Positions 25,181-52,652 of a stretch of DNA of 64,000 bases are shown piece after piece. The position numbers and the translations under genes were made by a program. The stretch comes from Verrucomicrobia bacterium UBA3841 (lineage in GTDB: Bacteria > Verrucomicrobiota > Kiritimatiellia > RFP12 > UBA1067). The notes beneath the pieces were generated by a model that searched no databases, was not told the origin of the DNA, and saw nothing but the letters and a program-made list of their open reading frames with translations. The DNA lies in NCBI GenBank assembly GCA_002392765.1, contig DGHT01000036.1:2870-66869 (forward strand). Direction: 5' to 3'. The first letter of the stretch is position 1; each line of letters begins with the position of its first letter.

Positions 25181-26578
25181 ATGAATGCAAAGGCATGGAG
25201 GCTCTACGGAGCAAAAGACGCGCGGCTGGAGGATGTTGAACTCGAGAGCGCTGGCGAGGATGGCGTCGTTGTGGAGATCGTGACTAACACGATCTGCCTG
25301 AGCGACTACAAGGGGATTTCCCTCGGAACCGGACACAAGCGCGTACCGAAGGATATAGCGACGAACCCGATTATGTTCGGACACGAGATCTCGGGAATCG
25401 TGCGCGAGGTCGGCGCGAAGTGGGCGTCGCAATTCAAGCCGGGACAGCGCGTCTGCATACAGCCGGCGTTCAACATCCCCGGACACGAACTCGAGACGAT
25501 GGGCTATTCGTGGCATTCAGTCGGCGGCGAGACGACGCACGTCTACCTGCCGTCGATAATCATGGAGATGGGCTGCCTCCTTCCGTACGACGGCGACGCG
25601 TACTTCAAGTGTTCGCTCGCCGAGCCGATAAGCTGCATCGTTTCCGCTTTCCGGTCGAACTACCACCATCCTTTCGGCTCGCACGTCCACGAGATGGGAA
25701 TCGAAAACGGCGGCACGATGCTCCTGATGGCCGGATGCGGCGCGATGGGGCTTGGCTGCATAGACATCGCGTGCCACTCGCCCGAAAAGCGTCCGCGCCG
25801 TCTCGTAGTCACCGATATCGACGATATGCGGCTCGAGCGCGCGGCGAGGATGTTTTTGAGGGAAGAGGGAAGGGGGAAGAGGGAAGAGGAAAGAGGCGCG
25901 ATCGTCGCTTCCGGGAAGGTGAACAATGTAGACGTTTATTTCGTGAATACGAAGAGCGTGGAAAATCCCGTCGCCTACCTCAAGTCGCTCAACAGCGACG
26001 ATCCTGTGGATGCCGCGAATCCGACTTCGACTGGCGGCGGATACGACGACATCTTCCTCTTTGCGGCCGTTCCCGCGCTCATCACGCAGTGCTCGGACCT
26101 GCTGGCGTTCGGCGGATGTCTCAACTTCTTCGCGGGGCCGACGGACCAGAAGCTCTCCGCGCCGTTCAACTTCTACAACATCCACTACATGAACCACCAC
26201 ATCGTCGCCAACTCCGGCGGCGACGTGAAGGACATGTCCGACTCGGTCGACTGGATCGGCAAAGGATACCTCCATCCCGAGGTGATGATAACCCATGTCG
26301 GCGGACTTTCCTCCGCCGCGCAGGCAACGCTGGATCTGCCCAACATCCCGGGCGGCAAGCGTCTCGTGTACACGCATGTAGACATGCCTATGGTCGCAAT
26401 CTCCGACTTCGCGGAAAAGGGCAAGTCCGATCCTTTCTACGCCGAACTCGACCGCATCTGCACCGCGAACAGCGGGCTCTGGTGCAAGGAGGCGGAGGAC
26501 TTCCTTCTTGCAAACGCGCCGAAGATTTCCATCGGCGCACCGAAGGAAAAGATCGTGGAGCGGCGGATCGTGCTGTAA
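25181..26578 (+). CDS. Zinc-dependent alcohol/polyol(-phosphate) dehydrogenase (MDR family) carrying an in-frame Glu/Arg/Gly-rich insertion
   Basis: GHEISG catalytic-zinc motif, GCGAMG Rossmann motif. 465 aa. Inserted FLREEGRGKREEERGA is encoded by a (GAGGGAA)n purine repeat at 25853-25900. Confidence 0.7.
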   Translation: MNAKAWRLYGAKDARLEDVELESAGEDGVVVEIVTNTICLSDYKGISLGTGHKRVPKDIATNPIMFGHEISGIVREVGAKWASQFKPGQRVCIQPAFNIPGHELETMGYSWHSVGGETTHVYLPSIIMEMGCLLPYDGDAYFKCSLAEPISCIVSAFRSNYHHPFGSHVHEMGIENGGTMLLMAGCGAMGLGCIDIACHSPEKRPRRLVVTDIDDMRLERAARMFLREEGRGKREEERGAIVASGKVNNVDVYFVNTKSVENPVAYLKSLNSDDPVDAANPTSTGGGYDDIFLFAAVPALITQCSDLLAFGGCLNFFAGPTDQKLSAPFNFYNIHYMNHHIVANSGGDVKDMSDSVDWIGKGYLHPEVMITHVGGLSSAAQATLDLPNIPGGKRLVYTHVDMPMVAISDFAEKGKSDPFYAELDRICTANSGLWCKEAEDFLLANAPKISIGAPKEKIVERRIVL

Positions 26579-26589
26579 TCGAGGCGGTC

Positions 26590-27708
26590 ATGGAAAACAC
26601 GGACACCAGATTCTTCTGCCTTTGCATGAGCCCTGCGATCGATGCGACGGTGAGGCTGCCGCATGCGCCGAGGGGCGAAGGCGAAATCTTCAAGGATGTC
26701 GCCGAGGATGAGAACGTGGGCGGAAAGGCCGTCAACGTCGCTCGCTGGCTGGCGATAAGAGGCGCGGAGGTCGCCTGCGGCGGACTTCTCGGCGAGGACA
26801 ACGACAGGCCTTTCGTCAAGGAACTTGCAAAGTACGCCATCGAGGACAGATTCGTGCGCGTTCCCGGAGCGACTCGCAGAAACGAGATGATCGTGTGGCC
26901 GGGAGGATCGGTGAAGCTCAACCGCGCGGCTTTTCCCGGATTGGGGAACGGGACGGCCGGGACAGGCGGGACAGATGTGACGGCCAGGGCGATTGACGCT
27001 TTGGCAGACGATGTTTTGTCGCGGTTGTCCGGTTCGTCTAAGATGTCCCGCGCTGACGCCGTAGCGGTCCTTTCCGGTTCGCTGCCGCCCGCCGTCCCGA
27101 AAGATTTCTACGCGAAGGCCGTCGCGCTGTTGAAGTCGCTCGGCTTGACCGTGGTTCTCGACGCGAGCGGCGAGGCCATGAAACTCGCGCTAGACGCCGG
27201 GCCCGACCTCATAAAGCCAAATGCGGAAGAATGCGAAGCGCTCGTCGGATTCGTTCCGGATACGCCGGAAGGGTTTGCCAGGGCAACGGCGCTCCTCCGC
27301 GAAAAGGCGGCTCACGTCGTCATTTCAGACGGCGGATCCGGTGCGTGGTTCGACGGCGAATTCGTCGCCGCGCCGAAGGTCGACGTGACCGATACGACGG
27401 CTGCGGGCGATACTCTTCTTGCGGAATTGTGCTGGAGAATGTTTGGGGGTGGAACAGGAAAACTGGGGGAACATATCCCCCGAGCGAAGGTTGTCCGCAA
27501 CGCGGATGCCCTAGCAGGGGTGGCGTCTCGCCCGTTTGAAGAGGGAAGAGAGAAACTGGGGGAACGGGCGTCTCGCCCGTTTGATGAGGGAAGAGGAATG
27601 AGGGAAGAGGGGAAATGGGCGGTTGCCGCCGGCTCCGCCGCCTGCACCATGCCCGGCGGAGCTCCACCGCCAGTCGAACTTGTCGAACGTCTTGCGGGCG
27701 AAAGATGA
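26590..27708 (+). CDS. PfkB-family sugar-phosphate kinase (1-phosphofructokinase / tagatose-6-P kinase-like) with a repeat-derived C-terminal extension
   Basis: GGKAVNVA and DTTAAGD motifs. The C-terminal ~100 aa are encoded by the GC-rich repeat element at 27437-27610. Confidence 0.65.
   Translation: MENTDTRFFCLCMSPAIDATVRLPHAPRGEGEIFKDVAEDENVGGKAVNVARWLAIRGAEVACGGLLGEDNDRPFVKELAKYAIEDRFVRVPGATRRNEMIVWPGGSVKLNRAAFPGLGNGTAGTGGTDVTARAIDALADDVLSRLSGSSKMSRADAVAVLSGSLPPAVPKDFYAKAVALLKSLGLTVVLDASGEAMKLALDAGPDLIKPNAEECEALVGFVPDTPEGFARATALLREKAAHVVISDGGSGAWFDGEFVAAPKVDVTDTTAAGDTLLAELCWRMFGGGTGKLGEHIPRAKVVRNADALAGVASRPFEEGREKLGERASRPFDEGRGMREEGKWAVAAGSAACTMPGGAPPPVELVERLAGER
27437..27610 (+). repeat. 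GC/purine-rich interspersed repeat (element A) copy 1, inside the PfkB 3' coding region
   Basis: Reverse complement matches 51116-51275 (shared blocks aacgggcgagacgccacccctgctagggcatc, gcgttgcggacaaccttcg, ctcgggggatatgttcccccag). Contains two copies of gcgtctcgcccgtttga and GAGGGAAGAGG tails. Confidence 0.6.
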
Positions 27709-28679
27709 AAATGGAAAACACTTCCAGACGGGATTTCATCCGCAACGGTTTTGCAATGGTCGGGGCCGGGATGTCCGTTATCGCTGCGGCGGACTCCGCC
27801 GCGGCATCGGGCGCACATGAAGCCGCCGGAGATCCGGCTCAAGGGCTGGACGTCACGGCCGATTCCGAGACTCGTTCCGCGTCCGCCCGCAAGCTTAAGG
27901 TCCGCTTCCTCGGCACCGGCGCGATCGACTGGGAGCGCGGGCCGAACGAATTCGGGGAAACGCGCCGTTTCGCGAGCGTGCTGGTGAACGGGAAAGCGCT
28001 TATCGACCTGACAGGACGCACTCGCGAGATGCTGCCGGAGGGATGCCGTCCGGAAGCAGTGTTCTACACCCACTCGCATCGCGACCACTTCGACGCAGAA
28101 GCCGCTCTTTCTCTCGGCGTCAAGCGCGTCTACTGCCACAAGTCGTGGGCCAAGACGGCTGTCGAGAAATTCGAGCAGGCGGCGAACGGACGTCCCGTTC
28201 CCGAAGTCAACGGCATCGTATTCGGCGCGCCGGTCCCCGTATGCGGCACCATGTTCACCGCGCTTCCCGCAAACCATTCCACGAAGCGCAAGGGAGAACA
28301 TTGCGCCATCTATCTTATCGACAAAGGGCCGGCGCGCCTGCTTTACGCGACTGACACTTGCGGCATTCCGCGCGACGCGCTGAAACACGCCGGACTGGAG
28401 CGGAACGCAGGCCGTCCGCTCACGGCGATAATCATGGAAGCGACTGCGGGAATCGGACAGGAGGACAATCCGCGCTTCTTCTTTTCGCATTCGTCCGTCG
28501 ATCTCGTGGCGAGAACCGTCCGCGCCCTCGCAGCGACAGGACGCTACCGTCCGCCGGCTTCGCGTCCCGTCTATATCACGCATCTTATCCGGTCCCAGTA
28601 CGCTTCGATGGCCGAGTTGGAGAATACCCTCCCCGCGCCGCTCAAAGCCGCATACGACGGTCTGGAAGTGGAGTTTTGA
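27705..28679 (+). CDS. Tat-exported MBL-fold metallo-hydrolase
   Basis: Tat motif SRRDFIRNGFAMVGAG. YTHSHRDHFD. C-terminus AYDGLEVEF, paralogous to the 11887 MBL protein. ATG overlaps the PfkB stop. Confidence 0.7.
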   Translation: MKMENTSRRDFIRNGFAMVGAGMSVIAAADSAAASGAHEAAGDPAQGLDVTADSETRSASARKLKVRFLGTGAIDWERGPNEFGETRRFASVLVNGKALIDLTGRTREMLPEGCRPEAVFYTHSHRDHFDAEAALSLGVKRVYCHKSWAKTAVEKFEQAANGRPVPEVNGIVFGAPVPVCGTMFTALPANHSTKRKGEHCAIYLIDKGPARLLYATDTCGIPRDALKHAGLERNAGRPLTAIIMEATAGIGQEDNPRFFFSHSSVDLVARTVRALAATGRYRPPASRPVYITHLIRSQYASMAELENTLPAPLKAAYDGLEVEF

Positions 28680-28752
28680 GCCTCCGCCCGGCGGCGATAT
28701 CAAGGAGATGCGGCATCCTGCCGCGTCCCTTTGCAAAACCTGCTTGTTTGTC

Positions 28753-28825
28753 TCACGCAAAGTACGCAAAGTTCGCAAAGCAACCATAGAAAAGAAACTT
28801 TGCGCGCTTCGCGAACTTGGCGTGA
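28753..28825. repeat. Palindromic element B copy 1: three tandem 9-mers (tcacgcaaag tacgcaaag ttcgcaaag), 16-bp spacer, three inverted 9-mers
   Basis: Direct read. Near-identical copy at 51340-51412; related copies at 30105-30172 and 43688-43761. Confidence 0.7.
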
Positions 28826-28944
28826 AATATATTCGGAGGGCAAATACCTCCAATGACAACAATCCCACAATTCCTCAGTTCCATCTTCCCTCAATTAAAG
28901 TCGAAAAAGTGTCATAGGACACTATGCTTTCACCGTCCTTCTTT

Positions 28945-30073: not shown

Positions 30074-30104
30074 ATGACTTGATGGGAAAATCTTGTTTTT
30101 GGCA

Positions 30105-30172
30105 TCACGCAAAGTCCGCAAAGTTCGCAAAGTTTCTTTCAGGACTTCGCGGACTTGGCGAACATTGCGTGA
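30105..30172. repeat. Palindromic element B copy 2, between the regulator and GH29
   Basis: tcacgcaaagtccgcaaagttcgcaaag ... acttcgcggacttggcgaacattgcgtga. Confidence 0.65.
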
Positions 30173-31625: not shown

Positions 31626-31652
31626 CGTGTAGAACGTGTAGATCGTGTAGAG
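31626..31652. repeat. Left terminal inverted repeat: (cgtgtagNN)x3
   Basis: cgtgtagaacgtgtagatcgtgtagag; its reverse complement matches 33077-33103 at 25 of 27 positions. Confidence 0.8.
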
Positions 31653-31763: not shown

Positions 31764-32873
31764 CTACAGCCGCTTGAGCCACAGGCCGAAGAATCTGTCG
31801 TAGACGACGTATCCCGCGTCCGACCGGTAAAGAAGGTCGCGTTCCGTCAACTTGGCTGCTGCGGATCGGACTGTGGAAGCGGCCGGGAGCTTGTTGCGCC
31901 TGATAAAATCTCCGCCGGATATGGACTTTGCAACACCCTGTCTGCCGACCGCCTTCAGGATGGATTGTTCGGCGGGAGTCTGGCTTCGCAGAAGGTCGAA
32001 GTAGAACGATTCCGATTCCGCAACGAGTTCATCCACGGTATCATCGACCTGTTGGACGGAATCGAGTCCGCTACCGTGCGTCCAGACGCGGTTGAGGATG
32101 CTTTGGATGTACCACGTTATTCCCTCGAAGCGTTCGTAGAGATGGCGAAACGCCCCTTCCGAGAAGGTGCGTCCTTCGCGGCGGAAGAACCCCTCGGCGA
32201 ATTGCCCGTACTTTCCGGCGTCGATGGTGCCGAGAGCCATGAGCTGCGTGCTTTGGTAGAAAGGACCCTTGGGCGAGACGAACATGGCGTCCATCATGTG
32301 TTTCCTGGAGCCTGCGAATATGAAATGCGCGTTCGGAACGAATTGGATGTAGCTTCTGAGAAGCGCCTCCGCCCCCTTTTCCGGAAACTCGCGAACCTGC
32401 TGGAACTCGTCGATGGCAATCACGACCTTGCGCTTGCGCGACGCGATGTAGTCGAAAGTGTCCTTAAGCGTGGCCTTGGCCTGCGACGGCGCGAGGTCGA
32501 AGGAAAAGGAGAAGGATCCGTCGTTGTTCGGCGTAAGCGTCGGACGGCAGCTCTTGAAGAACGAAAGAATCTTTCTCCCGACGCGCTCCGCCGGGGAGTC
32601 GAGCCTGTCGAGGACTGTGGCGGCGAACGTCTGCACGAACGAAGTGAGGTCTTCGATAGCGAAGATGTCGAGATAGACCGTCGCATGGGTCTTCTCGAGT
32701 GTCCGGAAGGCGTTGTGGACGAGACCGGTCTTGCCGTAGCGGCGCGGCGCGACGAGCGTCACGTCCCTTCCGTTGGAGATCGCGGAGACGAGCTTTTGCG
32801 TCTCTGCGGCGCGGTCGCAGAAGTACTCAGGCCCCGCGTAGCCGCGTATCAGAAAAGGGTTGTCGAGTTTCAT
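31764..32873 (-). CDS. AAA+ ATPase of the archaeal-ATPase / DUF234 type
   Basis: Walker A APRRYGKTGL. Walker B-like VVIAIDEFQ. C-terminal DUF234-like winged-helix region. ATG (MKLDNPF) at 32873, preceded on the minus strand by TTTGATATAAT 7 nt upstream. Confidence 0.7.
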   Translation of the reverse strand: MKLDNPFLIRGYAGPEYFCDRAAETQKLVSAISNGRDVTLVAPRRYGKTGLVHNAFRTLEKTHATVYLDIFAIEDLTSFVQTFAATVLDRLDSPAERVGRKILSFFKSCRPTLTPNNDGSFSFSFDLAPSQAKATLKDTFDYIASRKRKVVIAIDEFQQVREFPEKGAEALLRSYIQFVPNAHFIFAGSRKHMMDAMFVSPKGPFYQSTQLMALGTIDAGKYGQFAEGFFRREGRTFSEGAFRHLYERFEGITWYIQSILNRVWTHGSGLDSVQQVDDTVDELVAESESFYFDLLRSQTPAEQSILKAVGRQGVAKSISGGDFIRRNKLPAASTVRSAAAKLTERDLLYRSDAGYVVYDRFFGLWLKRL

Positions 32874-32880
32874 GCGCAAT

Positions 32881-32891
32881 ATTATATCAAA
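32881..32891 (-). promoter_or_regulatory. Extended -10 TTGATATAAT (minus strand) for the ATPase, leaderless spacing; a 19-bp perfect palindrome gcgacgaaattttcgtcgc lies at 32918-32936 in the -35 region
   Basis: Direct read of the reverse complement. Confidence 0.45.
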
Positions 32892-33076
32892 AATTCGCAC
32901 GTTGCGACGAAATTTTCGCGACGAAATTTTCGTCGCAGAAAAGTGGTGCGTTCAAAATCGTCTCATCTTTCGTGTATTTCGCGTATTTCGTGGTTCCATG
33001 AACCGCCTACAATTGCCGCGAAAATGCAAGTAGAAGTGCCGCGAAAGTTAAAGTAAGGAGTGCGGCATGATGACGC

Positions 33077-33103
33077 AACTACACGATCTACACGTTCTAC
33101 ACG
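33077..33103. repeat. Right terminal inverted repeat: (NNctacacg)x3
   Basis: aactacacgatctacacgttctacacg. Confidence 0.8.
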
Positions 33104-37838: not shown

Positions 37839-39631
37839 GAAACTTGTGCGGATCAATACTCGCGGCGATGTTTGCGCTTTTGGCCGCAGCCAGACCTGTG
37901 CCGCGTCCGGCGATGCTGAATCCGGCAAAATTCGACGCAGACGACGTCCAGGCGCTCAGGGACTTCGGCGAATTGCGCAAGGCGTCCGCGGCTCGCGAAT
38001 ATTTCGTCTCGCCGTCCGGCGACGATGCGGCGGACGGCTCGGCCTCGCATCCGTGGCGCACAATCAGCCATGCTGCGGCGGTCGCAGAATCGGGCGATAC
38101 AGTGACAATCCACGCAGGCGTTTACCGCGAGTGGGTGAAGCCCGCAAATGCCGGTTCCGAAGGTGCGCCGATCACCTACCGTGCCGCAAAGGGCGAGCGC
38201 GTCGTCGTGACGGGCGCCGACGAAGTGCGCGGCTGGACGAAGCGTCCCGACGGACTATGGGAGGCGCACGTTTCCTATGATTCCTTCGGCGGCGTCAATC
38301 CCTTCACGGACTTCATCGAGGGCTCCTGGTTTCTGCCGAAGGACTTGAACCACTTCCGCACGCGTCTCATCCAGTGCGGAAAGCCGCTGAACCTCGTCGG
38401 CGAGGAGATTCTTGCGCCGCCGGACCACGGCGTTCCGCATCTTGAGCGAGGGACTGCCGCGCTGATCCCAGGCCGCGTTTCGGGGATGATCGTCGCTGCT
38501 TTCGAGCACGATCCAAACGTGGAAGTGCCGGAACTTGTCGTGCGGCCCTGCTGCTTCTACCCGACCACGACGCGCCGCGACTATATCGCGCTCAGGGGAA
38601 TCGCGTTCCGCGACGCCGCGCCGACATGGGCGCATCCGCGCGGCGAACAGCCCGGTGTCGTCGGCACTAACTGGAGCCGCGGATGGACTATCGAGGATTG
38701 CGAAATCTCTGGCTCGTGCTGCGCGGGGCTTACGCTCGGCAAGTGCGCCAACGATTTCGACTCGTTCTGGAACGATCCGAAGCAGAGCTTTTCGCTTTGG
38801 GGCAAGCGCCTTTCGGAGCGCGACCTTTCGGAAATAGGCCACCACACGGTCCGTCGCTGCCGCATCTCCGATTGCGGACAGGCCGGCATCTGCGGCGGTT
38901 TCGGCGCGGTCTGGTCGACCATCGAGGAATGCGACATCTCCAATTGCTTCAAGGGGAAAAAGTTCTTCGGATACGAGATGGCCGGAATCAAGATACACGC
39001 GGCGGTCGGCATGACAATCCGCCGCAACCGCATCCACGACAACGGATGCTTCGCCGTATGGCTCGACTGGATGGCGCAGGGGACGCGGCTTTCCGGAAAC
39101 GTTTTCTGGAACAACGACCAGCACGACCTCTACCTCGAAGTCGTCCACGGGCCGAACCTCCTCGAAGGAAACGATTTCCTCTCCGAGAAGGCCATCCACT
39201 TCAAGGGCTCCAACAACATCGCACTTGTCGGCAACCGCATCTTCGGCTCGCTCGCGTGCGATGACGACGCGAGTCTGGGCTATCGGAAGACGCCTGTCTT
39301 TCATCCGCACTCGACGCGTATCAAGGAACTATACGCCGACCCAACGCCCGCGAACCTCGCATTCATCAACAACATTCTTCCGGAAGAACCGCATTTCTCC
39401 GATCTCGCGAGCAATCCGTGCAGGTGTGAAGACAACTTCCTCGTCCCGCGCGAATACTGGCTGATCGATGCGGCAACAGGCGATGTCGGCATCAGTCCGC
39501 CGCCATCCTTGCCGCGTCCGGACTTCAAGCCCGTCGGCGCCGGACGCCTCGGCGCCGGCCTTGTCTCGGGCGAGGACTTTCCACAGCCGTCGCCTGAATA
39601 TTCAACGCCGAAGAGAGAAATGAAGCTATGA
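37835..39631 (+). CDS. Right-handed parallel beta-helix (pectate-lyase fold) enzyme
   Basis: N-terminal YFVSPSGDDAADGSASHPWRTISHAAAVAESGDTVTIHAGVY cap. PbH1-like repeats (ISGSCCAGLTL, ISDCGQAGICGG, IRRNRIHDNGCF, GNVFWNN). Confidence 0.65.
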   Translation: MRNLCGSILAAMFALLAAARPVPRPAMLNPAKFDADDVQALRDFGELRKASAAREYFVSPSGDDAADGSASHPWRTISHAAAVAESGDTVTIHAGVYREWVKPANAGSEGAPITYRAAKGERVVVTGADEVRGWTKRPDGLWEAHVSYDSFGGVNPFTDFIEGSWFLPKDLNHFRTRLIQCGKPLNLVGEEILAPPDHGVPHLERGTAALIPGRVSGMIVAAFEHDPNVEVPELVVRPCCFYPTTTRRDYIALRGIAFRDAAPTWAHPRGEQPGVVGTNWSRGWTIEDCEISGSCCAGLTLGKCANDFDSFWNDPKQSFSLWGKRLSERDLSEIGHHTVRRCRISDCGQAGICGGFGAVWSTIEECDISNCFKGKKFFGYEMAGIKIHAAVGMTIRRNRIHDNGCFAVWLDWMAQGTRLSGNVFWNNDQHDLYLEVVHGPNLLEGNDFLSEKAIHFKGSNNIALVGNRIFGSLACDDDASLGYRKTPVFHPHSTRIKELYADPTPANLAFINNILPEEPHFSDLASNPCRCEDNFLVPREYWLIDAATGDVGISPPPSLPRPDFKPVGAGRLGAGLVSGEDFPQPSPEYSTPKREMKL

Positions 39632-41139
39632 AATTGGTATTGGCAACACTGGCAACACTGGCAACATTCGCCGCGACAGCGGCGGAGACTTTCTGCAATC
39701 CCATGCCGATTCCGGACACGCCCGTCGGCATACTCTGCCGCGACAGCTTGAACGGCGACGCGATTCCCGAAATCGCATGGCAGAAAGATTGCTGGACAAA
39801 TGCCGCCTGCGGTTTCAAGGAGGTGCGCCAGTTCCGCGAGCTTGCCGATCCGGTCGTTCTCGCCGAGGGCGACACATGGTATCTCTATTCGAGCGCGGGG
39901 CTTATGTGGACCAGCGACGACTTCGGCGGCACATGGCGGCATGTGGGCGTGCAGGCCGAAGCCGACTATGCGCCCGCAGTCGCCAAGTTCCGCGGCAAGT
40001 ACTACCTTTGCACATCAGGCGGACCGCTGAGCGTGGCCGATTCGCCCACGGGTCCGTTCCGGACGCTTGGCGCGTTCGACAAGAAGTCGTTCTCGTCCGA
40101 TTCGCAGATGCCGCACACCCTGGATCCGGCGCTTTTTGTCGATGGCGACCATCTCTATCTTTACTGGGGATGCTTCGCAAAGCCGAAGGCCGTCTGGTGC
40201 GTGGAGCTAGATCCGGAGAATCCGCTTCGCGCAAAGACGCCCGGCTCTGCCGTCTGCCTCGTCGAGTTCGACACGGAAAGATATCCGTGGCTCGACAGGC
40301 TGATCGAGGGCGCGTGGGTGTTCAAGCGCGACGGCACGTACTACCTCACGTATGCGACCTACGGAACGGAGGATTCGCGCTACTGCTGGTGCGCGATGAA
40401 AGGTTCGGGTCCGCTCGGGCCGTTCGTCCCGCAGAAGAACAATCCGTTCTTCATGACGGAGAAGGGTCTTGTCACAGGAACAGGCCACGGCTCTATCTGG
40501 TGCGATAAAAACGGAGACTGGTGGATCAACAGCTGCGTGTCTGTCGCAGCCTATCACGGCTTCGAGCGGCTGATCGCCCAGGATCGTCTCTTTTTCGAGC
40601 CGGACGGGGATATTGCCGTCGGCAAGGCTACCGAAACGCCGCAGTGGCTTCCGTCCAGCGGCAGGAAGGGCGGTACGGGATGGAAGGCGATACCGCTCAA
40701 GTCCGACAGAAGCGCGGCGACCGACATGAGCATCAAGACGTGGTCGACGGTCGAGAGTCTGCCGTCGAAGACCGTTTTTGAGTTCCCCGGAGAGAAGACG
40801 ATCCGAGCGTTCCGCGTCATCTGGCGCGACATCGGGCTCGACACGAATCGCGGCATCTTGCCGGGGCCGTATCGCTACCGCGTGGACTATCGCTCGAACG
40901 GTGTCTGGTGGACTTGGCTCGACGCCTCCAAGAACGACGTAGATCTCATGGTGGACTACCGCGAGGCGCCGGAGGCGGTTGCCGACGCGGTTCGACTTGT
41001 CGTCCTCTCCGCCCCGCCTGGCATCACTCCAGGGCTCGTGGAGTTTACGGTCTTTGGCTGTATGTTGGGGGAATTGGGAAGAGGTTCCCCATTCCCCGTT
41101 CCCCTTTCCCAGTTCCCCATAAAAGGAGACCAACCATGA
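39628..41139 (+). CDS. GH43 five-bladed beta-propeller glycosidase with a C-terminal beta-sandwich domain
   Basis: ADPVVLAEGDTWYLYSS (catalytic base Asp), LDPALFVDGDHLYLYWG, IEGAWVFKRDGTYYLTYA (acid Glu). The last ~25 aa (GELGRGSPFPVPLSQFP) are encoded by a gggaa/ccccgttcccc repeat. Confidence 0.75.
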   Translation: MKLVLATLATLATFAATAAETFCNPMPIPDTPVGILCRDSLNGDAIPEIAWQKDCWTNAACGFKEVRQFRELADPVVLAEGDTWYLYSSAGLMWTSDDFGGTWRHVGVQAEADYAPAVAKFRGKYYLCTSGGPLSVADSPTGPFRTLGAFDKKSFSSDSQMPHTLDPALFVDGDHLYLYWGCFAKPKAVWCVELDPENPLRAKTPGSAVCLVEFDTERYPWLDRLIEGAWVFKRDGTYYLTYATYGTEDSRYCWCAMKGSGPLGPFVPQKNNPFFMTEKGLVTGTGHGSIWCDKNGDWWINSCVSVAAYHGFERLIAQDRLFFEPDGDIAVGKATETPQWLPSSGRKGGTGWKAIPLKSDRSAATDMSIKTWSTVESLPSKTVFEFPGEKTIRAFRVIWRDIGLDTNRGILPGPYRYRVDYRSNGVWWTWLDASKNDVDLMVDYREAPEAVADAVRLVVLSAPPGITPGLVEFTVFGCMLGELGRGSPFPVPLSQFPIKGDQP

Positions 41140-44100
41140 ACAAAGCAATCGCATCTCTCGTCTGCATCGGCGCCGTGTGCACTGCGCTGGCGGATTGGAC
41201 GCTCGAGCGTAGCGCGGCTAAGGACGGGCTTTTGATGACGGACGGCATCAAGCCCGGGTCGTATTATGTGAGGCTTGAAGGATTTTCGGGTGACGACGCG
41301 ACCACCCGCGCCAAGGTGTGGCACGAGGGCCGGCGTATCGAGTTCGTGCGCGGCGGGCCGTGGATGGACGACAACGGCAAAGAGCTGATGACGCTCGAGT
41401 CGCGTCCGGTGGAAGTCAAACCGGGCGAGGCGTTCCGTGTCGACAAACAGACTCCGTGGACGCGGATCGTCCTCGCCGAAAAGCCGCTCGACTACGCGCC
41501 GCAGCGCGTATTCACGAACATGGCGCTCGACCCGGAAGTCGCTTTCGCCGCGGAGGCAGATTTCGGCGTGTCGAACGTGGCCGTGACGCTCAACAGCTAT
41601 CTTGGTTCGGCGGTCAAAGGACGGCTCCGAGTGAAGGTGACGGACTACTACGGCAAGACGCTCGCAGAAACGGATCGCAGGGACGTCGAGCTGGGAAGGA
41701 CGCTTAAACTCGATGTCCCCTACGAGGACAACGGCTCGGGGCAGTTTCGCGCGGCGGTCGGCTTCACGGACGGATCCGGACGCAAGGTCTATCGCGTCTT
41801 CGCGCGGCTTGCGGACGCAAAGTCGCCGCACCGCGAGCTTCTGAGGATGAACGAGGGATGGACGCGCGTCTCGGGCAAGAAGGCCGTGATGCCCGCCGAG
41901 GTAAAGGACGGCGCGGAGAAGTTCAGCGGCACTTTCGCGGTTCCGGCCTCGTTCGCCGGAAAGCGCATATTCTTCAAGGCGCTCAGGATTTCGTGCGTTG
42001 CGAAGCTTTACGTCAACGGCGCGGAGGCGGCGACGTTCGGCGAGGACGGCAATTTCGCGGGCGATATGGAGGCGGACGTGACGCAATTCGTCAAACCGGG
42101 CGAGACAAACGAATTCGTCATCGACGCGAAGCGCGCGGACGAAGAGAAGTATCCCAGCGGAATGCCGGGACGCCTCTCGGCGGTTTCCGAACTTGCGCTG
42201 GAGGCGCGCGGCGAAAACGCAATCGGCCGTGTTTCGGTCGTGACGTCGTTCCGCGAAAAGACGATTCGCGTCAAGGCGGAGCATCCGGCTGGCTTTACCG
42301 TGCGAAACTCCGTATGGCGCGGAGACGAGAAGCTTCTTTCCTTCGCGGACGAATCCAAGTGGGAGAATCCGCCGCTTTGGGGCCCCATCAACTTTCCTCT
42401 CCTCAAGCTCGTCACTGAACTTGTCGATGCCAAGGGGAATGTCGTGGACGAGAAGCTGACGCGTTTCGCGTTCCGCGAGTTCTGGCCGGACGGCATGGCG
42501 CTCATGTGGAACGGCCACCGCGTGAAGGGTGAAGCGCGGGCGTTCATCAGCACGTGGGGGTGGTGGGACTTCGACAGGCGCTGCAAGCGCCAGTTCAACT
42601 GCGACATCCTATGGGAAGGCAAGCTGCGAGGCATCAAGTTTCTGCGGCACGTCTACAACTCGTCGGAGTTTCTTGATTTCTGCGACGAGGCGGGGATTCC
42701 CTGCGCCGTAGGTTTCGCGACGATCGCGAATCCATCTCCCGAAAAGAGCGCGAACAAGGAGTTCTGGGCGTGGAAGGAGTACAACGACCGCTGCCTCGCC
42801 GCGACCCTGCGCAACCATCCGTCTGTCATGACGTGGTATATCACGAACGAATACTACGCCGAGAGCGAAGACCGCAATCTGGGGCCAGTCCAGTCCGCGC
42901 TGAGGAACATCCGCGCGTTCGATCCGTTCCACTTCGCCGAAACGGGCTGCGACCTCGATCTGCGCGGCGAGAACAACATAATCTCGACGCACTATCCCGT
43001 CGAGCTGCTCTCCTTGCGCAAGGCCGGGTGCTACATGCCGTATTCGTTCTACTGGCGCGATATCGAAAAGCCTTTCGTGAAAGGGCAGGCGATTCCCTCC
43101 GGGCAGATCCTGAAGGTCTGCAACATCTACGCCGATTCGCCGGCCAAGTGGGGCGAGAAGCCGATTTTCATCAACGAGACGTGCTGGGACTTCTTCTTCA
43201 ATCCGCCGTTCGGATGGACGCGCCTTGCGGGCGACGAGGTTTTCAACGATCCAAGATACTGCGACAAGTGGCACATCGAGACGGAAGTCGAGGCGGTGCG
43301 CGGGCATCGCGATGCAGACGTGACGCTCTGGACGCCGTGGCGCTGGTACCACATCGACCCCGAGTGGCGCGTTTCGCCGGAGATTGACGTCGTGAATATC
43401 CAGCGCTATTCGCGCTTTTACGAGGGGACGGAGGTCAAGTACGACGTCAACGTGTTCTACGACAGGTGGCGTCCCGCGACTGTGACGTGGTTCTGGCGGC
43501 TTGAAGACTCGGAAGGCAAGACGGTTGTCTCGTCCAAGGATGAGCGGATAGACGTTGACACGTCCGCGTTTATCAGAAAGCAGATTTCCTTCAAGGCGCC
43601 AAAGCCTGGTGAATACACGCTTGTCTTCGGGTTGAAGGGAGTCTGCGAGAAGACGCTTGACATTGTGTCTAGTTCGCGGTTTATGTCTCACGCAAAGCTC
43701 GCAAAGGGCGCAAAGTCGTCTGGCGAAGATGAACTTCGCGGGCTTGGCGAACTTGGCGTGAGAAAATATGCCAATGTATTCGGAGTGCGCGACGTCCTTT
43801 CCGAGCGGCTGCTTGACCGCGCGGCGGCAGGCGAGACCATCGTCATCCTCGCGCGGGACGACTACCCGGAGTGGCTGCCGGAGATACCGTCCGTATCCGA
43901 CCAGTCCGCAGCGATCCTGCGCACGTACAGAACGCGCCATCCGATACTGAAAGGGTTCAAGAAAGACGACCTCAAGTATTTCTATCCGAAATCGATCGCA
44001 TGCGACAGGGCGTTTGCGAAGCCTTCGGGCGGCAACGCGAAGACTGTTCTCGAATTCGGCGGCGCGTCGGGGCTAGTCTATTCCGCGCTTGTCGAAGTGC

Positions 44101-50426: not shown

Positions 50427-51209
50427 ATGAGAACTATATGTGAAGCAACTCTATCAGCAATGCTTTTGACGGTTTTCTGCGGCGGAACTTTTGGCTTGGA
50501 GCATTGTCATCCGGTCGGCGAACGGGGAACTGGGAACGGGGAATTGACGGTGTCGCCTGGCGGGATGTCTCCGAGGGAAGCACTTCTCGCAATCCGCGCG
50601 GCGAAGGCGAAAGGGAATACCGGCGCATGGACTGTCCGTGTGGAACGCGGAGCCTATTTCCTCGCAGAGCCGCTTGTTTTCACGCCAGCGGATTCCGGAA
50701 CGCCCGAAGCGCCTGTACGCTGGGTCGGCGAAGACGGCAAGGCGGCGTTCGTCGGCGGGGAGCGGGTCAAAGGATGGCGAGACGAGGGCAATGGCTTGTG
50801 GTCGGCACCTGTTCCGAAGGATGCGGAAGGGAATCCAGTATGGTTCGAGCAGCTGTGGGTAAACGGACGCCGTGCGGAGCGTGCCCGCGCGCCGAACGCT
50901 GTTCCGGACGATCCAGCCGCTGGCTGTATGAAGCTCTGCGAAGCGACGGAGAGCGTTGTCACGAATGCGGTGGACGGGTCGGTGGCGTACATCCAGCGCA
51001 TCGCTTCCACCAATGCGGCGATGTCCAAGTTGGAGAACACCCTCCCCGCGCCGCTCAAAGCCGCATACGACGGTCTGGAAGTGGAATTTTCAGCCGCCGG
51101 GACGGCGGCTTTCCCAGTCAATAACGGGCGAGACGCCACCCCTGCTAGGGCATCGCGAACGCGACTCGCCTTCGGCTCGGGGGATATGTTCCCCCAGTGT
51201 GGTCCCTAA
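50427..51209 (+). pseudogene. Truncated parallel beta-helix enzyme gene (first ~200 codons) fused to a duplicated 3' end of the MBL gene; chimeric remnant
   Basis: N-terminal cap similar to the 37835 protein (SPGG...AWTVRVERGAYFLAEPLVFTPADSGTPEAPVRWVG...VKGW). From about 51031 the sequence is a copy of 28614-28679 (ENTLPAPLKAAYDGLEVEF), then reads into repeat A2. Confidence 0.6.
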
Positions 51210-51285
51210 CTGGGAAAGCACCCCTGCCAGGGCATCCGCGTTGCGGACAACCTTCGGTTGGGGAATATGGTATCCTGCTGGCGAT
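51091..51285. repeat. GC-rich repeat element A copy 2 (a partial third copy lies at 51480-51550)
   Basis: Matches the reverse complement of 27437-27610. Interrupts the duplicated segment relative to 28614-28876. Confidence 0.6.
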
Positions 51286-51339
51286 ATCAAGGAGATGCGG
51301 CATCCTGCCGCGTCCCTTTGCAAAACCGGCTTGTTTGTC

Positions 51340-51412
51340 TCACGCAAAGTACGCAAAGTTCGCAAAGCAACCATAGAAAAGAAACTTTGCGCGCTTCGCG
51401 AACTTGGCGTGA
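51340..51412. repeat. Palindromic element B copy 4 (identical to copy 1; part of the segmental duplication)
   Basis: Identical arms and spacer to 28753-28825. Confidence 0.7.
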
Positions 51413-51605
51413 AATATATTCGGATGGCAAATACCTCTAATGACAACAATCCCACAATCTCATAATTTCATAAACGAGCGGGACGGTCGGCTTTCCCAGT
51501 TACCTCTTTCCTCGCAACGGGCGAGACGCCCGTTCCCCCAGTTATTCACGGAGCGGGACCTTACAACTCCTTGGAAGCCGCAATTTCACATTTTACACTT
51601 TATTT

Positions 51606-51614: not shown

Positions 51615-51682
51615 TATAATGTGGAAGCGCACGTATTCGCGTTCGTCGCGCTGTAGACGGCTTGAAAGGAGGAATCAAGACA

Positions 51683-52612
51683 ATGACGAAACCATCGAAG
51701 AAAATCGTAGTGCTGGGTTCGACCAACACAGACATGGTGATCGCCGGCAAGCGCATCCCCGTTCCGGGCGAGACAGTGAGCGGCGGAAAATTCATGATGA
51801 ACCCGGGCGGCAAGGGAGCAAACCAGGCCGTCGCCGTTGCGCGGCTCTCGGCGAAGCGCGGACAGTGTACGTTCATCGCAAAAGTCGGTGACGACATCTT
51901 CGGCCGCGAGACTGCGGCAAGGATGAAGAAGGACGGCATAGCGGCGCATCTCGTCATCGACCGCAAGGAGCAGTCGGGTACGGCGCTCATACTCGTTGAC
52001 GCGAAGGGGCAGAACGTAATATCCGTCGCGCTCGGCGCCAACGGCACGCTTTCGCCGAAAGACGTAGAGCCGTTCAGGAAGGATATAGAGGGCGCGGCGG
52101 CGCTCGTCATGCAGCTTGAGACCCCTGTCGAGACGGTCTTGTGGGCGGCGAAGGTCGCGCACGACAAAGGCGTGACGGTGATACTGAACCCGGCCCCGGC
52201 GGGGAAACTTCCGAAGTCGCTCTATCCGCTCGTGGACTGGATCACGCCGAACGAGACCGAGGCGGAGCTGCTGACCGGCGTGAAGGTGTCAGATGCCGCG
52301 AGCGCGGCCAAGGCGGTGAAAGTCCTGAAGAAGCGCGGCGTCGGGCATGTCGTCATCACCATGGGCACGAAAGGCTGCTGGTGCGGCGATTGCGGAAAGC
52401 TGTTTCCAGCTCTCAAGGTGAAGGCGGTCGACTGCGTTGCGGCCGGGGACACGTTCAACGGCGCGTTTTCCGTCGCGCTCGCGGAAGGCAAGTCGTGTGC
52501 GGAGGCGATAGATTTCGCGCAGAAAGCCGCAGCGATCGCCGTCACCCGCCCGGGGGCTCAGTCGTCCGTGCCGTACCGGAAGGAAATTGTTAAATTGAGG
52601 GAACAGGGATGA
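51683..52612 (+). CDS. rbsK: Ribokinase (PfkB family)
   Basis: VVLGSTNTDMV, GGKGANQAVA and AAGDTFNGAF ribokinase signatures. Strong Shine-Dalgarno AAAGGAGG. Confidence 0.8.
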   Translation: MTKPSKKIVVLGSTNTDMVIAGKRIPVPGETVSGGKFMMNPGGKGANQAVAVARLSAKRGQCTFIAKVGDDIFGRETAARMKKDGIAAHLVIDRKEQSGTALILVDAKGQNVISVALGANGTLSPKDVEPFRKDIEGAAALVMQLETPVETVLWAAKVAHDKGVTVILNPAPAGKLPKSLYPLVDWITPNETEAELLTGVKVSDAASAAKAVKVLKKRGVGHVVITMGTKGCWCGDCGKLFPALKVKAVDCVAAGDTFNGAFSVALAEGKSCAEAIDFAQKAAAIAVTRPGAQSSVPYRKEIVKLREQG

Positions 52613-52652
52613 GGGAACAGGGATAAAGTGTAAAATGTAAAGAGTAAAATAT

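Follow-up and report, generated by a model that had tools for sequence, protein, structure and literature searches.

A PfkB-family (1-phosphofructokinase-like) kinase gene at positions 26590–27708 (+ strand, 372 aa) of the 64-kb stretch of DNA analysed here, hereafter the window, carries a nest of repeats in frame. With a probability of roughly 80%, this nest consists of selfish or simple-repeat DNA; the enzyme gene around it still works, its structurally permissive loop has gathered the repeats, and they are translated as part of the protein. A preliminary description of the sequence had proposed a single element of about 170 bp. The repeats it reported are real, with copies at 27462–27581 (+), 51123–51269 (−) and 51516–51543, but they do not form one unit with termini. 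That is, the nest is made up of three families: GGGGAAY/GAGGGAA heptamer arrays, a REP-type hairpin (GGGG-AACGGGCG-TCT-CGCCCGTT), and a 50-nt cloverleaf module of three hairpins ((R)TATCCCCCAGCCGAAGGCTGTCCGCGAAGCGGATGCCCTAGCAGGGGTG), which is located inside one of the REP units.

Anatomy of the repeat nest and its relatives in the window

Pfam assigned PF00294 to the kinase gene and split the PfkB domain of its product into two pieces, while the structure of FruK (PDB 9qv3) aligns with residues 8–285, the alignment ending at aa 285. Homologues numbered 912, and 27 homologues that are 70–84% identical were aligned with the window protein (alignment A1, 28 sequences). In these 28 sequences the flanks of the insert are conserved, with near-invariant columns. 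According to this alignment, and to DNA comparison with the related loci L193, L195, L197 and L198, the nest (hypervariable site 2) spans 27448–27612 (+) and corresponds to 55 internal residues, codons 287–341, between CWRMFG and KWAVAAG; the conserved C-terminal segment (KWAVAAGSAACTMPGGAPPP...) picks up in frame on its 3′ side. The C-terminal extension of about 100 aa that had been read from the sequence earlier is therefore an internal insert. The insert region encodes the stretch IPRAKVVRNADALAGVASRPF, and in an AF2 model of moderate overall quality (mean pLDDT 65, pTM 0.68) residues 288–337 are coil with a pLDDT of about 27. The loop is hypervariable among orthologues, the shortest of which has just FG-APCEDAA-KW at this site, and is predicted to be disordered. 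Hypervariable site 1 of the same protein (GTAGTGGTD), which also varies between the orthologues of alignment A1, is encoded by a 9-mer array (CGGGACAGC × 2.9; 26949–26974, +, TRF).

Within the nest, the first REP unit is split into a 5′ part (ACTGGGGGAAC; 27462–27472, +) and a 3′ part (GCGTCTCGCCCGTT; 27523–27536, +), separated by copy A of the cloverleaf module (27473–27522, +, encoding HIPRAKVVRNADALAGV; match to covariance model (CM) R1 at 27472–27523, 71.4 bits, E = 4e-21). When rejoined, the two flanks match the intact unit at 27555–27581, with GG replacing the 50 nt. A shorter heptamer-type tract (27537–27554) leads to this second, intact unit (27555–27581, +), which has the structure ACTGGGGG-AACGGGCG-TCT-CGCCCGTT, was an exact match to the hairpin pattern, and encodes GERASRPF. 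The 3′ tail of the insert is an array of GAGGGAA-type heptamers and 14-mers (27582–27612, +; TRF 27584–27611), which has the direct repeat D16 in common with a tract in the neighbouring Zn-ADH gene.

The copy at 27462–27581 (+) shares with 51123–51269 (−) blocks of 51 nt (92% identity), 32 nt (100%) and 24 nt (100%), and a perfect 28-mer is common to 27554–27581 and 51516–51543; E-values of the repeat matches in the window ranged from 1e-14 to 5e-8 (blastn-short). The core 15-mer of the preliminary description (AACGGGCGAGACGCC) was indeed found, four times in the window. The copies are mosaics of independent families, in an order that is unlike between them. One counterpart, Composite B, is a nest of 174 nt (51100–51273, −) that is missing at the paralogous site 28686/28687: pairwise alignment of the two (A6) gave one clean 174-nt gap between flanks that are at least 90% identical. 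Two further copies of the module lie there, B1 (51137–51187, −; CM match 51136–51188, 53.4 bits) and B2 (51219–51268, −; CM match 51218–51269, 73.3 bits), so that the window holds three. Copy B1 is inserted in a REP unit with both junctions as in copy A (identities of 24 nt and 32 nt), and its hairpins carry compensatory changes relative to copy A (TCGCG-TT-CGCGA). These two REP::module composites, with identical junctions but different interiors, suggest that gene conversion or duplication contributes besides de novo insertion. What had been taken for a partial copy of the element (51516–51543, −) is an intact REP unit. In total, four REP units were found in the window, two intact and two interrupted. 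The two units in the PfkB gene are tandem head-to-tail, and the others are single; none forms an inverted (HH/TT) dimer. In addition, a 22-mer (CGGGACGGyCGGCTTTCCCAGT) at 51098–51118 is repeated at 51479–51500.

Heptamer arrays are also found in or at the ends of other genes. The Zn-ADH gene (25181–26578) contains a GAGGGAA array (× 5.6; 25858–25896, +, TRF) encoding LREEGRGKREEERG, as the preliminary description had noticed, and repeat DNA does reside in frame in enzyme genes. G-rich repeats had likewise been pointed out at 52599–52626 and at the end of ORF 39628–41139, which that description had labelled GH43. They correspond to TRF arrays of TGAGGGAACAGGGA (× 2.1; 52596–52624, +), extending across the stop codon of ORF 51662–52612, and of TTCCCCA (= GGGGAAy, × 5.1; 41085–41120, −), making up the last codons of the presumed GH43 ORF. 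The translation of ORF 51662–52612, inspected by eye, resembles that of another kinase of the PfkB/ribokinase type. A CGGGGAA array (× 4; 50516–50543, +; TRF and ORF list) is present near the N-terminus of ORF 50427–51209 (GERGTGNGE). The arrays at 27584–27611, 41085–41120, 50516–50543 and 52596–52624 all have units of the form G3-4A2N.

Both hosts were compared with orthologues, and the inserts proved to be lineage-specific, as had been anticipated: the shortest PfkB orthologue and the ADH orthologues that are 86–87% identical have loops without repeats. In alignment A2 the ADH loop of L195, L197 and L199 reads GIRPNTVRTSGL..., with neither heptamers nor module, whereas that of L193, L194 and L200 consists of GMGNG plus the module; heptamers alone occur in the window, and heptamers together with the module in L193 and L200. 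The ADH loop behaves like the PfkB loop. The suspicion of recent repeat activity was borne out as well. L193 and L199, with 96–98% nucleotide identity, differ at the PfkB site by exactly 16 aa, i.e. one module, and L200 has three extra heptamers (21 nt) relative to L193, with the frame kept.

The REP-type hairpin and the cloverleaf module

In the REP-type hairpin, 8 bp pair perfectly around a loop of 3 nt; folded as DNA, it reaches −9.8 kcal/mol (z = −4.2). In the accessible text of Di Nocera, De Gregorio and Rocco (2013, PMC3733652), REPs are stem-loops of 20–40 bp with a GC-rich stem and, at one end, an unpaired tetranucleotide tag (GTAG, or variants such as GTGG and GTRG), and the window hairpin falls within the limits for such a structure (6–13 bp stem, 2–5 nt loop). 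Its tag is GGGG and not the canonical GTAG; GTGG is accepted for Opitutus terrae, and GGGG is absent from the variants given in that text. The hairpin is apparently a member of the O. terrae GTAG-19 family, an assignment based on back-translation of published peptides and not on a published consensus. The peptides given there for intragenic GTAG-19 REPs (GARASRP, VARASRP, GTGVPPV, HGRDARAT and WHGRPAR), once back-translated, yield the stem and loop of the window hairpin, with a similar core (GTGG-CACGGGCG-TCy-CGCCCGTG), and GERASRPF at 27555–27581 is in the peptide frame of GARASRP/VARASRP. As far as the same text goes, the two also share a short GC stem, a 3-nt loop, a purine-rich 4-nt tag, occurrence as single, dimeric and clustered units, and residence in frame in enzyme genes of a PVC bacterium, where they encode 7–50 aa. 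They differ in that the window units read GGGG-AAC where O. terrae has GTGG-CAC, and in that the former, four in 64 kb, lie within heptamer arrays, with another element interrupting one of them. The claim that in-frame invasion of enzyme genes is unusual was therefore too strong: in-frame REP and RPE inserts are documented, and this text describes such inserts of the same type of hairpin in a verrucomicrobium, O. terrae.

The REP 20-mer was found at more than 111 loci in other genomes, with several per genome, in Acidobacteriota, Verrucomicrobiota, Planctomycetota, cyanobacteria and others. The cross-phylum copies are mostly inverted doublets with the outer tags GTAG, GTGG, GGAG or GGGG, and compensatory stem variants occur among them. 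An identical 28-mer is present in 'Verrucomicrobia bacterium UBA3750', and REP copies occur in Kiritimatiellae MAGs. All-vs-all ORF clustering revealed no recurrent neighbour gene, such as a transposase, in 111 REP loci, and tblastn with an IS200 TnpA probe, too distant for RAYTs, gave no credible match to a Y1-like ORF in 1.3 Mb.

Further copies, whose absence would have counted against the preliminary description, do exist: the module was found in at least 80 metagenome stretches (100 CM matches). Its matches in 708 kb of DNA belonging to other phyla numbered 0. A closing stem and three short GC hairpins with GAA-type loops make up its fold. From 32 filled copies, 13 distinct sites with an empty counterpart could be compared, most of these counterparts being paralogous repeat copies and not proven ancestors. 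At all 13, 50 nt in the filled site stand against 2 nt in the empty one, so that the filled site is longer by 48 nt and the target is not duplicated; replacement of 2 nt by 50 nt is indistinguishable from insertion of 48 nt 5′ of TG. The flanks show a bias (CGC^ ... (A/C)GnCGC) that may merely reflect the host repeats. Stop codons occur in two of the six frames of the module, the other four being open, and a CTAG-to-CTGG variant opens the former two; the encoded 16-aa pattern is IPxxKxVRxADALAGV.

Several candidate identities were considered and rejected. A classical MITE, which has terminal inverted repeats and a target-site duplication, does not fit the module, since the module's ends (TATCCCC.../...GGGGTG) give a closing stem of just 4 bp and duplications are missing at 13/13 sites. 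Differences between copies are C/T, G/A and G/C and compensatory in hairpins, not adenine-specific as for the template and variable repeats (about 100 bp each) of a diversity-generating retroelement, and no reverse transcriptase was seen by eye in the ORF lists near repeat copies. A viral origin was dismissed for both hairpin and module, neither of which had a match among the viral contigs of IMG/VR. In locus L159, a GxxExxY / PD-(D/E)XK gene lies between two inverted modules; it recurs in just 2 of about 85 loci and is no more than a lead. No paper containing the literal sequences of the hairpin or the module was found in the literature searched. The cloverleaf insert of net 48 bases seems previously undescribed, and it alone looks new, in-frame REP/RPE inserts being already known as a kind.

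Alternative readings of the inserts

The frame of the PfkB insert is open, the gene is otherwise intact, and the PfkB and ADH inserts occupy one fixed loop position clade-wide, which could suggest a functional, selected protein segment, i.e. a regulatory or interaction linker gained by both enzymes. However, the loop content is wholly unlike between close orthologues, which have heptamers, 9-mer arrays, the module, REP or nothing, and the PfkB segment is predicted to be disordered. Furthermore, the same DNA is present in intergenic space (51100–51273) and is read in four reading frames in unrelated proteins: the module occurs in frame, and in both orientations, in GltB (two copies), a Kdo transferase, a Ser/Thr kinase, UxuA and a Fer4 protein. 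Selection for such a segment is therefore very improbable. The module might also act at the RNA level, whether as a ribozyme, as a structure regulating in cis, or as an intervening sequence subject to excision or translational bypass. It does show strong hairpin covariation, with double changes in 12 of 17 pairs and 96% of cells paired, and its consensus RNA fold is more stable than those of shuffled sequences (z about −2 to −2.7). The compensatory changes are, though, nearly all Watson–Crick: among 681 cells only 2 are G-U against 47 compensatory ones, which 0 of 500 shuffles reach, and the covariation is the same on a MAFFT alignment. Such near-absence of G-U is expected if both strands must pair. 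Where host genes were verified, copies were seen to run either with or against them, and Rfam gave nothing but tRNA and noise at the gathering threshold in the window and 16 REP loci, and only noise at E ≤ 10 over the module and insert, so that a known structured RNA family was rejected. Moreover, 18 of 302 open frames of the module but only 2 of 148 stop-containing ones are flanked on each side by 100 or more open codons. Since frames with stops are nearly never found between long ORFs, ribosomes would seem to read through the module, and bypass or excision was rejected on these frame statistics; an RNA-level role is quite improbable.

Another reading makes the heptamer tracts contingency (phase-variation) loci, at which slipped-strand frameshifts would toggle metabolic genes, the other repeats hitch-hiking. 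Gain or loss of one 7-nt unit would shift the frame, copy number does differ between the near-identical L193 and L200, five heptamer arrays lie at gene ends or in loops within 64 kb, and in Xanthomonas and Nostoc the number of units in G-rich heptamer arrays is known to vary (PMC4692102). Yet the sole clean DNA-level length difference examined, the 21 nt between L200 and L193, preserves the frame; a protein-based search, prone to miss such alleles, retrieved no frameshifted orthologue; and ADH and a FruK-like kinase belong to central metabolism, unlike the surface or restriction genes in which phase variation is typical. Toggling is a quite improbable role for these tracts. Finally, the contig is metagenome-assembled and repeats are a classic source of chimeric assembly, so the nest could be a mis-assembly, or the PfkB gene a decaying pseudogene. 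The ORF is nevertheless uninterrupted, and its flanks hardly vary in the aligned orthologues. Three contigs carry records of the identical 372-aa protein, and in independent assemblies of relatives a nest of this kind occupies the same PfkB site, leaving this explanation with hardly any probability.

Known relatives and a possible mechanism

A parallel for genic residence is offered by the RPEs of Rickettsia, palindromic repeats that are reportedly found in frame in functional genes, surface-exposed and translated, and whose presence or absence is said to be lineage-specific, resembling the inserts described here. RPEs are AT-rich; RPE-1 is about 100–150 bp long, reportedly confined to Rickettsia and probably unrelated in sequence. 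Here, by contrast, the organism is GC-rich and the inserted unit is a cloverleaf of net 48 nt added to REPs and microsatellites, and the likeness is by analogy only. The SDRs of Nostoc and other cyanobacteria are, like the module, very small hairpin-forming elements that show up as interruptions of a sequence continuous without them, frequently within other repeats and close to heptamer arrays; they are said to be 21–27 nt long, cyanobacterial and almost exclusively intergenic. The module differs from them in its length of 48–50 nt, in its frequency inside ORFs, and in that all copies found come from metagenome contigs and related assemblies. Like REPIN/RAYT systems (Bertels and Rainey 2011, PMC3116915) and the elements of IS200/IS605-type single-strand 'peel and paste' transposition, the repeats here are non-autonomous hairpin elements without target-site duplication. 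Inverted REP doublets in most cross-phylum loci and paired positions that keep Watson–Crick pairing on both strands are further points of likeness. On the other hand, neither a RAYT nor a Y1 gene was detected in the DNA examined (111 REP loci; 1.3 Mb, with a weak probe), and the module consists of three hairpins and a closing stem, not of a REP doublet. The heptamer arrays resemble the G-rich heptamer SSRs (Rehm et al. 2015, PMC4692102), i.e. cyanobacterial STRR, GGGGA(C/T)T of Nostoc and GGGAATC of Xanthomonas, in being dispersed 7-nt units with G3-4, variable in copy number and often at gene ends. Those heptamers are reported there to be under-represented in coding regions, whereas several of the arrays described here lie within enzyme loops without breaking the frame, their length varying by three units at a time.

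If the nest did arise as accumulated repeat DNA, a GGGGAAY heptamer microsatellite would have settled in the loop between the helix that follows the GAGD motif and the C-terminal helix, REP-type hairpin units would then have joined it, and the 50-nt module would have entered the stem of one of these units, an order suggested by the states of the loop in orthologues. The module would be a discrete non-autonomous insertion element, each insertion lengthening the site by net 48 nt, or 16 codons, and leaving the target unduplicated. Survival within a gene would require a length that is a multiple of three, an open frame and a surface loop, and this filter could explain why the inserts appear in frame. 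The inserts are probably translated and roughly neutral, and we infer that the hairpins act as single-stranded DNA. Mobilization by a trans-acting HUH/Y1 enzyme (RAYT or IS200/IS605-like) is the weakest step, a conjecture to which we would give somewhat less than even odds. That the module represents a new class of ultra-small mobile element, which together with the heptamers actively diversifies the loops of housekeeping enzymes, driven by a putative single-strand DNA enzyme, is possible but rather doubtful.

Should this be true, its 16-codon length, few stops and duplication-free insertion would let the module spread into coding sequence no less easily than into intergenic repeats, alongside heptamer arrays that overwrite ancestral loop sequence, as in the ADH case, across a group of uncultured bacteria. 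The inserts are a clear, recent and quantifiable addition to the small set of protein-coding palindromic repeats, with filled and empty orthologous sites at 96–98% nucleotide identity and a strict rule of +48 nt, and they reside in enzymes of central importance, namely a FruK-like kinase, Zn-ADH, glutamate synthase and Kdo transferase. Such inserts lengthen proteins and break domain models, and in uncultured bacteria of this kind annotations and predicted structures may go astray because of them. If a mobilizing enzyme were found, this would be a compact system for understanding how selfish DNA enters genes without destroying them.

Repeat nests in the PfkB gene and between genes

A dispersed repeat does exist in this DNA, as the preliminary description had it: 27462-27581 (+) and 51123-51269 (-) have matching blocks of 51 nt (92%), 32 nt (100%) and 24 nt (100%), and a perfect 28-mer is common to 27554-27581 and 51516-51543 (blastn-short, E-values 1e-14 to 5e-8). 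It is not the single element first proposed but a mosaic, since the order of the blocks differs between the two places. Tandem Repeats Finder located G3-4A2N heptamer arrays at 27584-27611, 41085-41120, 50516-50543 and 52596-52624, as well as at 25858-25896 inside the ADH gene, in agreement with the GAGGGAA tract noticed there earlier.

The host of the nest is a PfkB-family, 1-phosphofructokinase-like gene of 372 aa (26590-27708), in which residues 287-341, bounded by CWRMFG and KWAVAAGSAACTMPGGAPPP, are repeat-encoded. The conserved C-terminus continues in frame beyond them, which makes this an internal segment and not the C-terminal extension previously assumed. In an alignment of 27 homologues (70-84% identical, 305-347 aa) the flanks of the insert are near-invariant and two sites are hypervariable, site 1 after NRAAFPGL and site 2 at the insert position. 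The alignment with the best solved FruK structure ends at residue 285. In an AlphaFold model built from the 27-homologue alignment, and only moderate overall (mean pLDDT 65, pTM 0.68), residues 288-337 have a pLDDT of about 27 and are devoid of secondary structure, between helices 270-286 and 339-345. Site 1 (26940-27000, aa about 118-150) is a second hypervariable loop, filled according to the orthologue by 9-mer GGGACnGnC arrays (GTAGTGGTD), GGGGAAT heptamers (GNGEWGMGNG), or SH-rich or KE-rich runs. At 27705-27708 the PfkB stop overlaps the start of the downstream MBL-fold gene (324 aa in the L001 call) as ATGA, a sequence arrangement that suggests translational coupling in an ADH-PfkB-MBL operon.

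Site 2 is a stack of three repeat families: heptamer tracts, whose units are degenerate forms of GGGGAAY/GAGGGAA, a tandem pair of REP-type units, both reading ACTGGGGG-AACGGGCG-TCT-CGCCCGTT, and a 50-nt module. One REP unit is intact (27555-27581) and the other is split by the module (27473-27522); its rejoined halves equal the intact neighbour, with GG in place of the 50 nt. An intergenic nest of 174 nt (copy B, 51100-51273) is cleanly missing from the paralogous site 28686/28687. Its composite of REP unit and module has junctions identical to those in PfkB, with compensatory differences within the hairpins, and copy B also holds a second module copy. The region 28606-28884 is related to 51019-51471 by a segmental duplication (93-95% identity) comprising the final 81 nt of the MBL-fold gene (27615-28679) and the downstream repeat region. 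The copy at 51019 is joined to an unrelated ORF (50427-51209), and the MBL-gene stop TGA is TCA in it, so that this ORF reads into the repeat nest.

Comparison of orthologues bears out recent repeat activity. The contigs L193 and L199, 96-98% identical in nucleotides over ADH-PfkB, are exactly 16 codons, i.e. the module, apart at PfkB site 2, where L200 has three further heptamers (21 nt). In L197 and L199 the site holds nothing but heptamers, in L195 a GTGTAGAAC 9-mer array, and in L198 no repeat at all (FG-APCEDAA-KW). The ADH loop following ARMF takes three forms: a non-repeat segment (GIRPNTVRTSGL...) in L195, L197 and L199; the GAGGGAA tract in the window; and, in L193, L194 and L200, GMGNG heptamers plus a module variant matching that in their own PfkB genes. 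In ADH, repeat DNA has taken the place of an ancestral loop sequence and is not just an addition to it.

The REP hairpin and the cloverleaf module

When 185,579 species genomes were scanned for the 20-mer AACGGGCGAGACGCCMSYYC, at least 111 loci came up, often several per genome, the matches listed being from Acidobacteriota, Verrucomicrobiota, Planctomycetota, Kiritimatiellae, cyanobacteria, Thermodesulfobacteriota, Sumerlaeota and others. Among these listed matches the perfect palindrome is completed in nearly all, most are inverted doublets with outer tags GTAG, GTGG, GGAG or GGGG, and stem variants with compensation are common. 'Verrucomicrobia bacterium UBA3750' has the identical 28-mer, and Kiritimatiellae MAGs also contain REP copies; the hairpin was not found in IMG/VR viral contigs. 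Across the at least 111 loci, which represent eight phyla or more, the 20-nt hairpin AACGGGCGAGACGCCCGTyC is essentially unchanged. Because REPs are usually lineage-specific, this suggests a partner enzyme that is very conserved or spreading horizontally.

Hairpin doublets with outer tags are also the architecture of GTAG-tagged REPs in the account of PMC3733652. The intragenic GTAG-19 peptides of Opitutus terrae listed there (GARASRP, VARASRP, GTGVPPV, HGRDARAT, WHGRPAR) back-translate to GTGG-CACGGGCG-TCy-CGCCCGTG, which is the stem and loop of the window REP, and the window peptide GERASRPF is read in that same frame. Judging from these back-translated peptides, the REP component seems to fall within the described family. 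According to that survey, O. terrae has the most intragenic GTAG REPs among the genomes surveyed; more than half of them are dimers or groups that encode 20-30 aa, and the REPs lie in many enzymes (PMC3733652). That hairpins of this type reside in frame in genes of a PVC bacterium was therefore already documented, and is less unusual than it had been taken to be.

The pattern CGAAGG-N14-GATGCCCTRGCAGGGGTG retrieved 80 metagenome stretches, in which module copies are near-identical across (R)TATCCCCCAGCCGAAGGCTGTCCGCGAAGCGGATGCCCTAGCAGGGGTG with sharp edges. As DNA, the module folds into a cloverleaf of a closing CCCC/GGGG stem and three hairpins (CAGCC-GAA-GGCTG, TCCGC-GAA-GCGGA and TGC-CCTA-GCA). 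The covariance model R1 found 3 copies in the window and 100 in 507 kb (window, metagenome loci and orthologue contigs), and none in 708 kb from other phyla; the module was not found in IMG/VR viral contigs either. Changes on both sides were seen in 12 of the 17 pairs, and 96% of cells are paired, versus about 40% with partners slid; none of 500 shuffles reached the pair-change and pairing values. An independently made MAFFT alignment upheld the covariation for hairpins 1 and 2, the closing stem and hairpin 3 being invariant in it, as their positions had been set by the search pattern. Since only 2 pairing cells are G-U versus 47 fully compensatory, constraint on both strands, i.e. DNA hairpins over a strand-specific RNA, is favoured.

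Insertion sites of the module and its copies in genes

When each module copy was excised in silico and the rejoined flanks were used as query, intact counterparts were found for 32 copies. At the 13 distinct strict-flank sites the counterpart always has exactly 2 nt versus 50 nt in the filled site, a net gain of 48 nt without target duplication; replacement of 2 nt by 50 nt and insertion of 48 nt 5' of TG fit alike. Among the targets are CGCAGAG 8-9-mer arrays, the stems of a different type of REP (GGAGGTGC^GG^CGTCTCGCCGCGCC), GGGGAAY arrays and unique sequence, and the flank bias (CGC on the left, (A/C)GnCGC on the right) may simply be the sequence of the host repeats.

CGCAGAG arrays, the commonest module host in the metagenome loci, also occur in frame, for example as ESAFAKASAKAKADK in some of the PfkB orthologues (site 2) and as AAKNAKIAKN in GltB of contig L163. 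They are related to the yACGCAAAG 9-mers of a further dispersed family at 28735-28825, 30087-30163, 43670-43761 and 51322-51412, where three tandem units and an inverted partner, CTTTGCGnGCTTCGCGAACTTGGCGTGA, form long intergenic hairpins (repeat pairs D2, D4, I3 and I4, and Tandem Repeats Finder). Perfectly complementary 25-nt CGTGTAGAA 9-mer arrays at 31626-31650 and 33079-33103 bracket the gene of a 378-aa ATPase (31764-32900 (-); Pfam ATPase_2, L001 annotation), a stretch with a GC of 0.55 versus about 0.60 and possibly a mobile cassette; L195 has this 9-mer array in frame at PfkB site 2 (SRVEHVERVEG).

About 40 of the 73 non-redundant module copies lie inside long open frames, part of which are likely to be spurious, arising on the antisense strand where the DNA is rich in GC. 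Pfam-verified in-frame copies, in both orientations and three of the four open frames, were found in the glutamate synthase large subunit (two copies, one missing from the L163 orthologue), a Kdo transferase, a Ser/Thr kinase (on the stretch that links the catalytic loop to the DLG motif), UxuA and a 4Fe-4S protein. The module is open in four of six frames. Long ORFs on both sides accompany 2 of 148 frames with a module TAG versus 18 of 302 open frames, from which we infer that genic insertions are translated through and that stop-introducing ones are not retained.

Origin of the in-frame repeats

The best-supported explanation is that selection acts as a filter on selfish or simple-repeat DNA. 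The module, like the REPs and microsatellites, would land widely and persist in genes only where the loop is permissive, the frame open and the length divisible by three, the last of which the net 48 nt of the module satisfies automatically. The alternatives are weakly supported. An adaptive linker is at odds with loop content that varies between close orthologues, and with the presence of the same DNA between genes and in unrelated proteins. An RNA element or bypass is opposed by the outcome of the Rfam scans, by the orientations of the copies and by the frame statistics, and a phase-variable contingency locus is difficult to reconcile with the frame being kept in those length differences that could be checked. 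Neither a pseudogene nor a mis-assembly would be expected given the intact ORF and the agreement of independent assemblies.

As to how such DNA would move, the hairpins, the lack of target duplication and the symmetric Watson-Crick covariation are reminiscent of REP/RAYT and IS200/IS605-type single-strand transposition. Neither ORF clustering around the at least 111 REP loci nor a weak IS200 TnpA probe over 1.3 Mb revealed an enzyme of either type, and mobilisation by one, proposed by analogy, is a tentative suggestion that may well prove wrong. A 127-aa PD-(D/E)XK_3 (GxxExxY-type) nuclease-like gene lies between two inverted modules (L159:1089-1472) and a homologue, 54% identical, adjoins a module in a second contig (L123:2106-2477); the arrangement may be fortuitous, or it may point to a protein that mobilises the module or is associated with it.

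The cloverleaf module had no Rfam match, and a literature search by its literal sequence was also negative. Its properties are distinctive, yet within a known kind and not a new category. The phenomenon belongs with the GTAG REPs inside genes of O. terrae and, by analogy, with the palindromic repeats that code for protein in Rickettsia.
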